Source: Escherichia phage SkaterBoy_Bas90. Taken from it: a stretch of DNA of 64,000 nt. The notes below the pieces were generated by a model. The model was not told the origin of the DNA. It saw only the letters and a program-made list of their open reading frames with translations, and searched no databases. The position numbers and the translations under genes were made by a program. The stretch lies in sequence record PQ850626.1; one strand, written 5' to 3'. This document shows positions 6,801 through 63,946 of the stretch, piece by piece. The first letter of the stretch is position 1; every line of letters begins with the position of its first letter.

Positions 6801-6830
6801 CCCTGCCTTCGGGCGGGGTTTTTTCGTTTT
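6801..6830 (+). terminator. rho-independent terminator (UUCG tetraloop hairpin + T tract)
   Basis: CCCTGCC-TTCG-GGCGGGG followed by ttttttcgtttt. Confidence 0.8.
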
Positions 6831-6852
6831 AAGACCTATACAAGCTAGTGTG

Positions 6853-6862
6853 TAATGTATAT
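6853..6862 (+). promoter_or_regulatory. TAATGTATAT motif, candidate promoter element ~35 nt upstream of 6895 gene
   Basis: recurring motif; lies just after terminator and before SD AAGGAGG. Confidence 0.35.
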
Positions 6863-22029: not shown

Positions 22030-23685
22030 ATGCAACAGACAACTTACGCTCAGGTCAGAAGTCGTGACCCGAGAAATACTTTCTATGGTGTTAATCCGGG
22101 AGCGGCTTCGGCCTCTCCTTATATGGCTAGACCTACTCAGACAGCAGATATTTCTATGTATCAACGTCCTGCTGTACCTTCATCTCTTGCGGGTCTTGTC
22201 TCTCAGGCAGAAGAAGATCAGAATGCTATGGTTAATCCGGGATTCCAGCAACGTCTTATGGAACAGCAGAATCAAGGAACTCCTACCAGTCTTCAGGGTA
22301 TTGATATTGGAGCACCGGCCCCTGTAGCAGCTAATCCTAACCTATCCACTGATCAAGGTTTACAGGATGCTGGGCTTATGCCTAGTGACCCTCTTCCGGT
22401 AACACCTCCTCCTAAACCACTAGAAGCTGGTCCTATGGAGTTTACTCCTTCTCAGGTGGAACAGGCACAGGGTGTGATTAACACTCTTGCTCAAGGACAA
22501 GACACTGGTGATGGAATGGCTGCTGCTACTCGTGCTAAAGATCAGGAACGTGTTAACAACGATATCTTGCAAGTTGCGAAAGCTAAAGACCCTTCAGAAG
22601 CTTGGAACAAATTACAGAAAGAACCATTCTATCAGAACTCTAGTTTCTACACAGGTTTGATGGGTGTAGGTCTTTCAATCATGTCAGGTAAGTCTCCTAT
22701 CGAAGCTTTCCAGATTGGTCAGGGAATGGCTAATCAAGATGAGACTAAGAAGCAACTGGAAGCTAACCGTGATGCTCTGATTGAACAAGGCTTCTCTCAA
22801 GACTCGATCGCAGCTGCTATTGCTAACGGAGACCCGTCTCTACTGAAGATGAGAGCTGTAGACCCTGCTCAGAAAGAAGCGTTGTATGCTGCTCGTGAAG
22901 AACGACAAAATGCTGAATGGGATAGACGTCAACAGATTCAAGAGCAAACTATGCGTGAGCGTGCTGATGAAACTCGTCGTGCCGCTGAAGAAAGGGCTAA
23001 CATGAACTTTGAACGTCAGAAAGAGTTGATTGGTTATCGTGATAAAGTTAAGGCTGAACGTGCTGAACAAGCTGCTCAGAGTTTTAACTTTAACCCGAAA
23101 GAAGTTCGTCTTGCTCAGAATACAGCTGAAGGTACGGTTGCTAAGCAGTGGGCAGAGAAAGGTGGCCTGTTTAACCAGTCTAACAAAGACTTGGATTTGG
23201 CTGATAAGGCTGTTAAGGATAAAGACTATCAGACAGCTCGTTCTGCTTACATGCAGGCTATCATGAACTCCGCAAGGGCTGAAATCGGTGCTACTCGTTC
23301 TCTTACCGAAGAAGACTTGGGGCACTTTGCAGAAGACCCATCAATCTTCGTTCGTGTTGGCAACAAGTTTGCGCTGAAATCTGGATGGCGTCCTACTGAT
23401 TCTGCTCTTGCTTATGCTCGTAAGCAAGCTAATGTTGGTCACACCTCTGCAATGAAAGGTGTTGCTGATGCTAAGAGAGCTACGATTGAAGCTTACATCG
23501 GTTCTGGTATGGATAAGAAGAGAGCTACTGCATTGGTTAACCGTGCAATCCCTTCTGGTGGTTTCTATGACCCTCTAGGTGTTTTCTCTGAACAAGCAGA
23601 AGAAGCAGTTGGTGGTGCAGCAACCAATCCTAAGCTTAATGGTGCTTTATCAGCTGTCGAAGACACTAGCTGGTTTACTCAATAA
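22030..23685 (+). CDS. internal virion protein
   Basis: 551 aa, position between fibres and large ejection-like protein. Confidence 0.45.
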   Translation: MQQTTYAQVRSRDPRNTFYGVNPGAASASPYMARPTQTADISMYQRPAVPSSLAGLVSQAEEDQNAMVNPGFQQRLMEQQNQGTPTSLQGIDIGAPAPVAANPNLSTDQGLQDAGLMPSDPLPVTPPPKPLEAGPMEFTPSQVEQAQGVINTLAQGQDTGDGMAAATRAKDQERVNNDILQVAKAKDPSEAWNKLQKEPFYQNSSFYTGLMGVGLSIMSGKSPIEAFQIGQGMANQDETKKQLEANRDALIEQGFSQDSIAAAIANGDPSLLKMRAVDPAQKEALYAAREERQNAEWDRRQQIQEQTMRERADETRRAAEERANMNFERQKELIGYRDKVKAERAEQAAQSFNFNPKEVRLAQNTAEGTVAKQWAEKGGLFNQSNKDLDLADKAVKDKDYQTARSAYMQAIMNSARAEIGATRSLTEEDLGHFAEDPSIFVRVGNKFALKSGWRPTDSALAYARKQANVGHTSAMKGVADAKRATIEAYIGSGMDKKRATALVNRAIPSGGFYDPLGVFSEQAEEAVGGAATNPKLNGALSAVEDTSWFTQ

Positions 23686-23703
23686 GACCTAAGTCCTGCC
23701 TTC

Positions 23704-23716
23704 TATAATGTATATA
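23704..23716 (+). promoter_or_regulatory. TATAATGTATATA motif, candidate promoter for 23753 gene
   Basis: contains exact TATAAT; ~37 nt upstream of ATG 23753. Confidence 0.35.
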
Positions 23717-32786: not shown

Positions 32787-33021
32787 AATGCATCTCTTTA
32801 TAAACGGTTTCCGTGTTCTTCTTCCAGTTAGATAAACCGGTAAGAACTCTCTGAGCAACTTCATCAGCTGCTCTACTTCTTTCAATCTCTAATTCTTGCT
32901 GGTGCTTCTCTTTGTCCAGATTACTGCTGTCTGTTTGATATTCGTTAAACTTCATACCACCAAAGAATACAAGAGCTGAGAAAACGATAAACCCTAAGTT
33001 ATCACTTAATGTGTTTTGCAT
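32671..33021 (-). CDS. i-spanin (Rz-like)
   Basis: N-terminal TMD 'LGFIVFSALVFFGG' then charged coiled coil; track GTG start 33045 lies inside the terminator hairpin, so ATG 33021 preferred. Confidence 0.5.
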   Translation of the reverse strand: MQNTLSDNLGFIVFSALVFFGGMKFNEYQTDSSNLDKEKHQQELEIERSRAADEVAQRVLTGLSNWKKNTETVYKEMHYEKTKPVFYNVCASDEYVSLFNERQQQAINALTNKPKS

Positions 33022-33030
33022 GTTGTCTCC

Positions 33031-33057
33031 AACGAAAAAAGCCACCCGGAGGTGGCT
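33031..33057 (-). terminator. rho-independent terminator after SSB
   Basis: AGCCACC-CGGA-GGTGGCT hairpin followed on minus strand by TTTTTTCGTT. Confidence 0.6.
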
Positions 33058-33078
33058 AAGCTATAACAAGGAGAGTTA

Positions 33079-33825
33079 TTAGAATGGGCTATCGTTGTCG
33101 TCTTCGTAAGTAGAAGCAGGCTCTTTATCAATCGTAGGGATTGAAGGAGTAGCTTCTTTCTGCTCTGTTTCAGAAGCACGAGTAATTTCACGACCAGCCA
33201 GAGGCATGTTCTTAGCGTCATTAGCTTGAGTAAGCAGGTTGCGCTGGAACGGGAACATCAGTTGGTAGGATGCTACGTTCTCGTCGGTTTCAGCATATGG
33301 TTCGAAGAATACCAGAGGACTACGAGCTTCACCAACTGCTGCACGATATTTGGTTGGGATTGGAGAAATGGTCTTGATGGAGTTTTTAACTTCACCAGCT
33401 TTGTTAGTATAAGAGTTAACCAGAATGTTAACAGGCTGACCTAACAGAACATCCTTGAACCAAGATAGATCACCTTTCAGTGCTTGAATACTTGGGTCAA
33501 TCATCTTGCAAAGATCAAGAATACCAGAGTTCTTAGCTCGTGGGTTTACATCATAGCTCTTGAACTGGCAAGCTGGACGTGGTTCTAATGCCTTACCATC
33601 GGAATCTTTACCAGTAGCATCAACACCAATCAGCTCGAAAGCTAAATCCATACGGAAAGCCGGATTCTTAGGAGTCACTGCTTTGGTCTTCGGGTCAATC
33701 CAAGGGTCACGATTGTGAACACCCAAACCTACTACACGAACGATACGTGCTTCGTACTCACCATCAGGGATTACATCGTAGTTGGATTTACGGGAAGCGG
33801 TTGCGATAGTTGGAATCATAGACAT
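33079..33825 (-). CDS. single-stranded DNA-binding protein
   Basis: 248 aa; acidic C-terminal tail '...STYEDDNDSPF'; sits in replication module. Confidence 0.6.
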   Translation of the reverse strand: MSMIPTIATASRKSNYDVIPDGEYEARIVRVVGLGVHNRDPWIDPKTKAVTPKNPAFRMDLAFELIGVDATGKDSDGKALEPRPACQFKSYDVNPRAKNSGILDLCKMIDPSIQALKGDLSWFKDVLLGQPVNILVNSYTNKAGEVKNSIKTISPIPTKYRAAVGEARSPLVFFEPYAETDENVASYQLMFPFQRNLLTQANDAKNMPLAGREITRASETEQKEATPSIPTIDKEPASTYEDDNDSPF

Positions 33826-34241
33826 ATTTTAATTTCCTTATTTAATTTGAAAGATTGTTGCTCTCTTTGAGCGGTTATGTATAGTATACATTACGCTTAT
33901 ACCGATAAGAGTACTATATAATATAAGTATCTTTGGTAGTAGATATATCACACTAGTAATGTATATATTGTATAGCTGATAAAGTTATTGCAGGCTTGTA
34001 TATTGGGCAATTCACAGAATCCCTTGCAAGTACCGAAGGGCAGGAGCCACCTGCGAGATAAAAATAGAGAATTAAGGAATCCTTGATTTAGGTTGTAGGG
34101 ACTCCTAGGGACTTTGATTCTCTATTTAAAAGAATATTAATTACTTATTACCTAAATAATTAACTAACTTACTTAAACCAAATTCAAGAATAATAGATAA
34201 AAAGATTATTCCTAAGAAAGCTAAAAAGTAAAGAATATAAG
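33826..34241. other. 416-bp ORF-free AT-rich region with inverted/direct repeats (candidate origin/promoter hub)
   Basis: repeated GTATA motifs, TAGGGACT x2, 11-bp inverted repeat AAATAGAGAAT/ATTCTCTATTT. Confidence 0.4.
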
Positions 34242-34490
34242 TTACCATTCAAGTAAACCTTTAAAATTAGATTTTTCTACTATCCTCTGATAACGAAGAT
34301 TAGAATCAGCTTGTTTCTTTAACATCTCATTATATTGATCTCTAATAGAGTCTTTATAAACTACAGGTTCTTTAAATAATGAGATCTTGTTCTTTTCTTC
34401 TTTCATCAAAGACCTTCCTAATCTCTTGCAGAGAAACAGCTTTATAGTCAATTTGCTCCATTGATGTACAGAAATATCTCCAATCATCAA
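34242..34490 (-). CDS. hypothetical small protein (start probably internal)
   Basis: track ORF overlapping 3' end of phosphoesterase gene in another frame. Confidence 0.3.
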   Translation of the reverse strand: MMIGDISVHQWSKLTIKLFLCKRLGRSLMKEEKNKISLFKEPVVYKDSIRDQYNEMLKKQADSNLRYQRIVEKSNFKGLLEW

Positions 34491-40736: not shown

Positions 40737-40748
40737 GTATACATTATA
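40737..40748 (-). promoter_or_regulatory. TTATAATGTATAC motif (minus sense), candidate promoter for 40701 gene
   Basis: contains TATAAT; ~35 nt upstream of ATG. Confidence 0.3.
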
Positions 40749-45118: not shown

Positions 45119-45142
45119 GAGAGTTACCATATCTACTACCAA

Positions 45143-62322: not shown

Positions 62323-62676
62323 ACATCCTCCAATTAATTGTTAAAACTATCAGGGGAGAACACTAGCTCTGGGCCACGCTGTAGATATTGGCCTACCTTC
62401 CACAGCTAATCAGCTAATATACTCCCCTAATAGTTTATGAATAGGGGGAGGGGACGAATCCTCCCTTATCCTATTAGTTAATATTGCATGTAAGATCTAA
62501 CAATCGGTTGCCTTTGTAGGAATAAGCGTAAAGCCAATCCAGCACTAAACTCCCGCCCCCTTAGTGGGCTGGGTTATTAAAGGGTAACGCCCTTATGGGC
62601 TAGTTACATGAATGTTAGTTTGATAGGAGATCTGAAGTCCTATCTCAAAGGACTCTCGTAAGAATCCTTCACGATA
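62323..62676. other. ~350-bp ORF-free region rich in GC hairpins (regulatory region or candidate ncRNA)
   Basis: nested inverted repeats CTAATAG/CTATTAG and GGGAGG/CCTCCC; GCCC-TTAT-GGGC. Confidence 0.35.
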
Positions 62677-62817
62677 TTACTTATTCATCTCTCGTCGGCT
62701 ATCTCTCCAAGCCAACCAAGTGTAGGTTTTCAGTTCTTCAAAGTCTTCTGGAGAGAATAGATACTCTTTGAAGGTGTTCCCAAACCACTCTAAAAATTCT
62801 TCAGTCATAAGATTCTC

Positions 62818-63870: not shown

Positions 63871-63946
63871 TGGTGCGCCCTACAGGACTCGAACCTGTAA
63901 CCAATAGCTTAGAAGGCTACTGCTCTATCCATTGAGCTAAGAGCGC
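63871..63946 (-). tRNA. tRNA-Arg (anticodon UCU), CCA encoded
   Basis: hand-folded cloverleaf: acceptor GCGCTCT/AGGGCGC, D-arm GCTC-AATGGATA-GAGC, anticodon arm GTAGC-CTTCTAA-GCTAT, T-arm ACAGG-TTCGAGT-CCTGT, discriminator A + CCA. Confidence 0.85.

Follow-up and report, generated by a model that had tools for sequence, protein, structure and literature searches.

Divergent gp36-type promoters beside gene 40 of phiEco32-like phages: a known one and an apparently new one that leads into a conserved, putatively structured non-coding region

Phage phiEco32 is a model for the re-programming of host RNA polymerase by a phage-encoded sigma factor, gp36, together with the factor gp79. Promoters recognized through gp36 carry a single element, tAATGTAtA, with AATGTA centred at -11.5, and transcription starts 6-8 nt downstream of it (PMC8948821). 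Six such promoters have been described, the late promoters P6, P13 and P26 and the middle promoters P40, P58 and P68 (PMC8948821; PMC4331800; PMC4281155), and in the published descriptions all of them serve genes (PMC8948821; PMC4331800). For gene 40, the upstream motif figures in published lists as agreeing with promoters detected by experiment (PMC4331800; PMC8948821 Table S3). A cryo-EM structure of the open complex that the gp36 holoenzyme forms with a middle promoter shows -37G and -34A in contact with the C-terminal domain of gp36, and -14A, -13A, -12T and -11G are read by the N-terminal domain (PMC12276001). In the literature searched, no mention was found of an antisense RNA, a small RNA or an origin of replication in these phages.

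The DNA analysed here, referred to as the window, is a stretch of 64,000 nucleotides from Escherichia phage SkaterBoy_Bas90 (PQ850626.1). It is a Kuravirus genome of the phiEco32/SU10 type: the 2-kb neighbourhood of the locus under study is 96-99% identical to that of many Kuravirus Escherichia phages (phiEco32, SU10, WFI101126 and others), and 98 phage records match it. From about 28 kb onwards, all genes are carried by the minus strand. A preliminary description had pointed to positions 33826-34241 as an AT-rich, ORF-free region and as the largest non-coding stretch of the window. The base composition is indeed extreme, with 29.6% GC against 42.6% for the window, which places the region in the lowest 0.4% of all 416-bp windows. 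It is not free of ORFs, as the 35-aa ORF phi32_41 occupies 34141-34248 on the minus strand; the non-coding block is 33826-34140, 315 bp. Nor is it the largest, since the gap at 62323-62817 is 495 bp long when ORFs of at least 45 aa are counted. That gap, which contains no ORF of this size on the expected strand, is probably an early-promoter spacer of the kind described for phiEco32 and SU10, and a tRNA-Arg(TCT) gene lies near it at 63871-63946 on the minus strand. The features of the locus are as follows.

33079..33825, minus strand: gene 40 (phi32_40 homolog), SSB-like OB-fold, from the ORF list and an AF2 model with PDB fold search
33826..33878, minus strand: predicted 5' UTR of the P40 transcript, its start at 33878 placed from the published spacing
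33885..33893, minus strand: -10-like element TAATGTATA of P40, the middle promoter of gene 40 that is published as gp36-dependent
33935..33946, plus strand: -35 box GGTAGTAGATAT of the predicted opposite-facing promoter, the same as the P68 box
33957..33965, plus strand: -10-like element TAATGTATA of this opposite-facing gp36-type promoter, with predicted start A33972
33972..33988, plus strand: P1, predicted 5'-terminal hairpin ATAGCT/AGTTAT, beginning at the predicted +1
33988..34034, plus strand: central variable hairpin domain, of type A in the window and swapped in relatives
34035..34059, plus strand: invariant GAAGGG and then predicted hairpin P4 (GCAGG-AGCCA-CCTGC, 34040-34054)
34062..34127, plus strand: P3, long predicted 3' hairpin; its lower stem measures 16 bp, two G.U pairs among them
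34141..34248, minus strand: phi32_41, gene of a 35-aa hydrophobic peptide that matches PHROG 24970

The part that is conserved in all relatives extends from 33826 to about 34131, and the DNA to the right of it is lineage-specific or missing in an alignment of 20 phage relatives. The gene phi32_41 therefore lies outside the conserved non-coding element. Its match to PHROG 24970 has an E value of 2.7e-24, and relatives including phiEco32 have it annotated under the name phi32_41; its amino-acid sequence is kept across genera, with substitutions, and it is absent or truncated in some lineages. The product is a single-helix hydrophobic membrane peptide of 35 aa, MVTYILYFLAFLGIIFLSIILEFGLSKLVNYLGNK. 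A version truncated to 25 aa is found in EcoN5, FH3 and one metagenome contig, and the gene is absent in the lineage with a longer phosphoesterase gene.

To the left of the conserved block lies gene 40. Sequence searches with its product gave no Pfam or PDB match. An AlphaFold model (pLDDT 81.8, built from 28 homologs) has its best PDB matches, all of them weak, in the OB-fold proteins PrgE, SSB, PriB and RPA, and the acidic C-terminal tail of the protein ends in EDDNDSPF, resembling the tip of E. coli SSB. The label SSB, under which the gene had been introduced in the preliminary description, is plausible and reasonable in view of the modelled fold and this tail.

The GTATA-type motifs that had been noticed in both orientations are -10-like elements of the phage sigma factor gp36. 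Exact copies of TAATGTATA are present at 33885-33893 on the minus strand and at 33957-33965 on the plus strand, with one-mismatch copies at 33875 and 33966. The window holds five exact copies, against 0.66 expected, and four of the five precede genes in the same orientation. The copy at 33885-33893 is the published, and already known, promoter P40, which lies upstream of and is co-oriented with gene 40. Its -35 region reads AGTA, so that of the cryo-EM contacts -37G and -34A only -34A is present. The leader measures 53 nt from the predicted start at 33878, with a ribosome-binding site AAGGAA at 33834-33839 and a small conserved hairpin, GCTC..GAGC, at 33860-33872. Because gene 40 has its own promoter and is followed by a hairpin at 33057-33040 that the terminator scan reports as strong and terminator-like, it looks self-contained. 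In the interval that separates the gene 40 stop from this hairpin (33057-33079), the window lacks an insertion of about 424 bp that is seen in relatives just 3' of gene 40 (SU10, WFI101126, Ptacy1532, FH3 and others; 3081-3494 in L001) and that encodes an HNH homing endonuclease.

A weak match to an Rfam family, DUF2815 RNA (RF03084), was found in the gene 40 leader at 33823-33864 on the minus strand; it scores 15.2 bits, where the gathering score is 41.2. The motif of this family occurs in the 5' UTRs of SSB-like phage genes, and the match likewise falls in the 5' UTR of an SSB-like gene. It amounts roughly to the ribosome-binding region, and the hairpin of the motif is almost deleted; a comparison of gp40 with Pfam DUF2815 gave no match. 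With a sub-threshold score, a nearly missing hairpin and a gp40 that does not match DUF2815, the leader is not counted here as a member of this family. The match is probably due to chance, though the coincidence of context is notable.

The exact element on the plus strand, at 33957-33965, faces away from every gene, as all neighbouring genes are on the minus strand. Neither the ORF list nor the comparison of homologs revealed a conserved plus-strand ORF downstream of it; a small ORF at 33988-34086 (plus strand) was rejected as coding because module swaps in relatives alter its length by non-multiples of three. At a distance of 10 nt, the element is preceded by GGTAGTAGATAT, as is the case at P68. 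The 11-mer core of this box occurs exactly twice in the window, at 33935 (plus strand) and at 45130 (minus strand), and the second copy precedes the P68 element AAATGTATA at an equal distance. The rightward promoter has GGTA at positions -37 to -34, identical to P68, and all six bases contacted by gp36 (-37G, -34A, -14A, -13A, -12T and -11G) are matched. By these features it would be a near twin of P68 and is predicted to belong to the middle class.

Both boxes are well conserved. TGGTAGT is kept in all 25 unique relatives, and the -10-like element is invariant in 20 aligned phage records. Some variation is seen in other homologs, one metagenome variant reading TAATATATA and three sequences (L038, L041 and L043) reading AATGAA. 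The tetramer AATG is retained in nearly all relatives; a metagenome contig (L031) has AATATA for AATGTA. In divergent metagenome relatives the promoter reads TGGTAGT and [TG]AATG[AT]AT with 9-nt spacing, and both boxes are kept even in metagenome phages in which gp40 is only 71% identical. The idea of a divergent promoter hub, put forward in the preliminary description, is supported by this arrangement of the published P40 and, opposite to it, an exact tAATGTAtA with a P68-type -35 box. The rightward promoter does not appear in the published lists of gp36 promoters that were consulted (PMC8948821, PMC4331800). It is apparently undescribed, and it may also be already known, or silent.

Several other gp36-type promoters of the window can be compared in their -35 regions. 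The late promoters at 6823-6861 and 23676-23714 (plus strand), of the P13 and P26 types, share TAAGACCTA at about -38 to -30. P40 and the copy of TAATGTATA at 40738, which is probably P58, have neither TAAGACCTA nor GGTAGTAGATAT. This distribution suggests that gp36 promoters may fall into sub-classes defined by their -35 regions. In the myPSH2311/ES17 group, an insertion of about 140 bp is located exactly between the divergent promoters (in L008, myPSH2311, between the equivalents of window positions 33915 and 33933). It contains an apparent minus-strand ORF of about 47 codons, as translated by eye, the start codon of which abuts the -35 box of the rightward promoter.

From the predicted start of the rightward promoter onwards, the conserved DNA has the appearance of an RNA-coding element. 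A small RNA had been mentioned as a possibility, and this gains comparative support from compensatory changes in three helices and from G.U pairs that work only on the plus strand. In every lineage the predicted +1 coincides with the first position of hairpin P1. Its stem occurs in ten sequence variants, all of which form a hairpin of 5-7 bp; they include AUAGCU/AGUUAU, AUAGCU/AGCUAU, AUAGUU/AACUAU and AGAGUU/AACUCU and, further, AUAGA/UCUAU, ACAUC/GAUGU, UCUCU/AGAGG and ACAGU/ACUGU. In an alignment of 13 sequences, two P1 pairs are changed on both sides. The covariation score, for which about five lineages could be reached, is 0.037 against 0.017 in shuffles, a value attained by none of 500 shuffles.

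The central domain opens with an invariant TTGCA, and the rest of it is replaced wholesale in relatives by unrelated modules (B, B' and C) of 38-73 nt. Within these modules, too, pairing is preserved by compensatory change: CUG/CAG has become CCG/CGG in module B of ECBP2, and UCCUU/AAGGG has become UCGUC/GGCGA, affecting two pairs, in module C of L048. The same sequence, L048, carries a compensatory change in P4, where GCAGG/CCUGC is replaced by GCUGG/CCAGC (A-U to U-A), and a P4 hairpin is predicted in all divergent homologs. A long-range pairing proposed by the RNAalifold consensus, TTGCAGG/CCTGCGA, was rejected, as L048 breaks it and preserves the local GCUGG/CCAGC hairpin.

The 3' part of the element is of a different character. 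It contains most of the repeats that had been recorded from the DNA, and these are all present: the inverted repeat AAATAGAGAAT/ATTCTCTATTT at 34062-34072 and 34117-34127, the near-palindrome AAGGAATCCTT at 34074-34084 and the direct repeat TAGGGACT at 34096-34103 and 34106-34113. The inverted repeat can be extended to 14-16 bp if G.U pairs are counted and, so extended, makes up the lower stem of P3, which encloses AAGGAATCCTT and both copies of TAGGGACT. P3 is flanked by an A-tract on its 5' side and a short U-tract on its 3' side (34124-34131) and is nearly invariant in 25 unique sequences. The whole 3' domain, 34035-34131 or about 97 nt, is almost invariant in the same number of sequences and has stops in all frames. 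The block 34030-34131 is 91-99% identical to that of other genera, compared with 78-81% for the coding sequence of gene 40. Overall, 39 of the 47 predicted pairs are invariant. Pairs that never vary are uninformative, and P3 and the inner helices are in this sense unproven as RNA structure. The two copies of TAGGGACT, which are not equivalent in the predicted RNA fold, drop one G together in one lineage, giving GAGGACT..TAGGACT (ECBP2, Paul, XT18, Bas88, L043 and L048); this concerted change could reflect a constraint at the level of DNA or protein.

The strand on which the element would act can be judged from the pairs themselves. On the plus strand 99.5% of the pair cells in the alignment are standard pairs, compared with 86.1% for the mirror image on the minus strand, a comparison that is biased since the structure was derived from the plus strand. 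The lower value comes from the six or seven G.U pairs in each sequence. The minimum free energy is -45.8 kcal/mol on the plus strand and -35.3 on the minus strand, and the commonest P1 variants fold stably only on the plus strand. In XT18, an A-U pair of P3 has changed to G.U, which would be C.A on the minus strand. The four-part architecture recurs in the predicted folds of divergent homologs. Folding z-scores are modest and range from -1.5 to -3.3. What the sequences show directly is the motifs and how far they are conserved, together with the compensatory changes and the bias towards one strand.

The two sides of P3 call for a separate consideration of the minus strand. Terminator scans, for which an intrinsic terminator is a short G+C-rich hairpin with a loop of 3-8 nt and then a stretch of 8 nt with 5 or more T, flagged none at 34062-34131 on either strand; the P3 stem is AU-rich, with 38 nt between its arms. 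The plus-strand tail of P3 is not U-rich, having only 2-4 U (UAUUUAAAA, UUUUAAAA, UAUUAAAA and similar), whereas the tail on the minus strand is U-rich and invariant, UAUUUUUAUC. It can be imagined from this order of P3 and U-rich tail that P3 is an intrinsic terminator or an RNase III-type hairpin of the minus-strand mRNA, which ends or cuts the transcript of the P58 operon before P40. The rightward promoter would then serve only to cause transcriptional interference or to supply an antisense partner for read-through RNA, a mode of action for which lambda oop offers a comparison. Such insulation would be sensible for a gene that has its own promoter and a downstream terminator, and a plus-strand RNA is fully complementary to any read-through transcript. 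Nevertheless, this arrangement seems unlikely. Read on the minus strand, the stem has A.C mismatches at its G.U positions, with the lower pairing (86% against 99.5%) and weaker folding energy (-35.3 against -45.8) given above, and an AU-rich stem with widely separated arms went unflagged by the scan. For antisense pairing or interference, a conserved 5' hairpin with compensatory changes would be superfluous, and so would an invariant domain of 97 nt. Furthermore, the small minus-strand ORF of the myPSH2311 group lies downstream of P3, and a promoter of its own was not identified, which suggests read-through.

The mosaic structure of the locus invites yet another explanation. The second TAATGTATA and the repeats could be functionless by-products of an AT-rich recombination junction that are kept similar by frequent exchange. 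Swaps of the central module, the ORF inserted in the myPSH2311 group, the lineage-specific upstream genes and the nearby HNH insertion all show that exchange does occur here. Chance, however, does not account for an 11-nt box that is shared with P68 at identical spacing, and selection is indicated by the compensatory changes in three helices and by conservation that exceeds that of the flanking coding sequence even where gp40 is only 71% identical. It is therefore very improbable that the element is such a by-product.

An origin of replication had been proposed for the region in the preliminary description. In its most specific form, this would be a transcription-primed origin of the T7 or T4 kind, in which the 3' part of a structured pre-primer invades the AT-rich DNA downstream and primes the rightward leading strand. 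The layout of the locus agrees with this in several ways. The rightward promoter serves no gene, and its predicted middle class, as for P68, corresponds to the phase in which replication starts (PMC4281155). Beyond P3 the DNA is richer in A+T than anywhere else in the window (19% GC at 34132-34241) and has 18-28% GC in all lineages despite differing sequences. The site adjoins the SSB-like gene within the replication gene cluster, and its very high DNA conservation would fit a site that is read both as DNA and as RNA. The cumulative GC skew that had been suggested as a check shows no inflection at the site; it peaks and turns at about 28 kb, where gene orientation flips. This is weak evidence, because skew in such phages follows transcription and gene orientation, so that it is uninformative as a test for an origin. 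Near the site there is only a 1-kb blip over the coding sequence of gene 40, where skew is positive (+0.084 at 33001-34000) in comparison with -0.1 to -0.2 in neighbouring 1-kb bins of minus-strand genes. Other observations speak against an origin. In the lineage of the window the AT-rich stretch is the conserved peptide ORF phi32_41; only two short direct repeats and no iterons are present, AGGGACT not being enriched in the window; a protective 5' hairpin and swappable central modules are unexpected in a primer; and distant relatives with the same replication genes are without the element. Taken together, the evidence gives no positive support for an origin, which we regard as rather improbable.

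The element is confined to a limited group of phages. It was found in 98 records of the subfamily Gordonclarkvirinae and in a small number of metagenome relatives. The more distant gp40-bearing phages 7-11, GAP52, Privateer and LAh_8 lack it, as do metagenome phages with gp40 of 63-69% identity; in these phages only 54-148 bp lie upstream of the gene. Four metagenome sequences with gp40 in this range (L039, L040, L046 and L047) contain other conserved nested inverted repeats, AAGCATCTAGCAAAGCTAGCATATCAAAGCTAAGCTAAGCTATATGCTT, about 145 bp upstream of the gp40 homolog, which is possibly a positional analog. Outside the phage group, no homologs were found in E. coli genomes, plasmids or the genomes of 185,579 bacterial species, and a 17-mer scan of IMG/VR gave 76 loci, with the neighbouring motifs in none of the 71 new ones.

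In a comparison with Rfam 15, no family reached its gathering threshold locally, the best local scores being 11-22 bits against thresholds of 39-140, and the sole threshold match in the window is a tRNA elsewhere. Matches to CRISPR-DR47 and to microRNA families were far below their gathering scores and were discarded. No paralog of the predicted RNA is present in the window. A search for trans targets within the window gave only 11-nt complementarities, by estimate about the number expected by chance, and no partner or target was found in the window, E. coli genomes, plasmids or bacterial species genomes. A role as CsrA sponge was also considered and rejected: by our own count the RNA has only 4 GGA motifs in 160 nt, where about 2 would be expected by estimate, and most of them fall in paired stretches of the predicted structure.

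Stated most cautiously, the locus appears to contain a divergent pair of gp36 promoters, of which one is known and the other apparently new, and the new one leads into a conserved, putatively structured non-coding region. We consider it somewhat more probable than an even chance that the divergent promoter pair is combined with a new gene for a structured non-coding RNA. Three features favour a discrete, stable RNA: a hairpin that sits precisely at the predicted 5' end and is maintained by many compensatory changes fits a plus-strand transcript; the central part resembles an exchangeable RNA module set between fixed elements; and the 3' domain is constrained well beyond the needs of a promoter, a terminator or an antisense RNA.

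Promoter activity, RNA ends and function are here deduced from sequence, and the following course of events can be envisaged. Both promoters would be used by E. coli RNA polymerase carrying gp36. Leftward, P40 would start the mRNA of gene 40 at about 33878, and gene 40 would form its own transcription unit, ended by the hairpin at 33057-33040. Rightward, the opposite promoter would fire in the middle phase and make a non-coding RNA of about 160 nt, from 33972 to about 34130. In this RNA, P1 probably protects the 5' end, the central hairpin module would be an exchangeable part between fixed elements, and P3 probably sets the 3' end; in the opposite orientation, P3 may reduce the read-through that reaches gene 40 from the upstream operon. 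The 3' end is the weak point of the proposed RNA. As the plus strand is without a canonical intrinsic terminator, the transcript possibly runs on, antisense to genes 41-43.

Since the 3' domain is far more conserved than neighbouring protein-coding DNA, the RNA would seem to act through the sequence of these approximately 97 nt, presumably by binding a conserved protein or nucleic-acid partner, and it would not be merely an antisense transcript. It is a tentative idea, and a doubtful one, that the domain binds or titrates a conserved macromolecule of host or phage, such as a defence, RNA-decay, translation or polymerase factor, or that it belongs to a structured replication pre-primer.

If this picture is correct, a seventh, P68-like promoter without a gene would change the view of six promoters that all serve genes, and it would drive the most conserved non-coding sequence of the neighbourhood. 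The phiEco32 model would gain an RNA player, or a missing origin of replication, and a previously unseen functional RNA could turn out to be central to the middle programme of this phage. The RNA element spans the subfamily Gordonclarkvirinae, many members of which were isolated on pathogenic or multidrug-resistant E. coli.

Compared with the gp36 promoters of phiEco32 (P6, P13, P26, P40, P58 and P68), the rightward promoter shares the exact tAATGTAtA and, with P68, also the -35 box and its spacing. While each of the six published promoters precedes a gene and is co-oriented with it, this one opposes the gene cluster and enters non-coding DNA. In this respect it is reminiscent of orphan replication promoters and promoter-plus-DUE origins, as known from T7 (phiOL, phiOR and phi1.1A/B) and T4 (oriF and oriG). 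The likeness consists in a phage-specific promoter, here a predicted one, without a gene, in a replication region, with AT-rich DNA downstream. It differs from these origins in that about 160 nt of conserved, structured and GC-richer sequence separate the promoter from the AT-rich DNA, and in that its transcription would run head-on to the genes.

P40 is known. The opposite promoter, like the RNA-like element, seems not to have been described before, and the two would make up a new family among phage small RNAs or orphan phage promoters. Antisense or stable small RNAs of phages include lambda oop, P22 sar, the T4 stable RNAs and phi29 pRNA. The predicted RNA resembles these in being a short non-coding transcript with its own promoter and, here by prediction, terminal hairpins, and like lambda oop it is oriented against an operon. 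It has no sequence or Rfam relationship to any of them. Also unlike them, it would overlap no coding sequence if it ends at P3, its promoter is of the phage-sigma type, and its 3' domain is more constrained than an antisense role needs.
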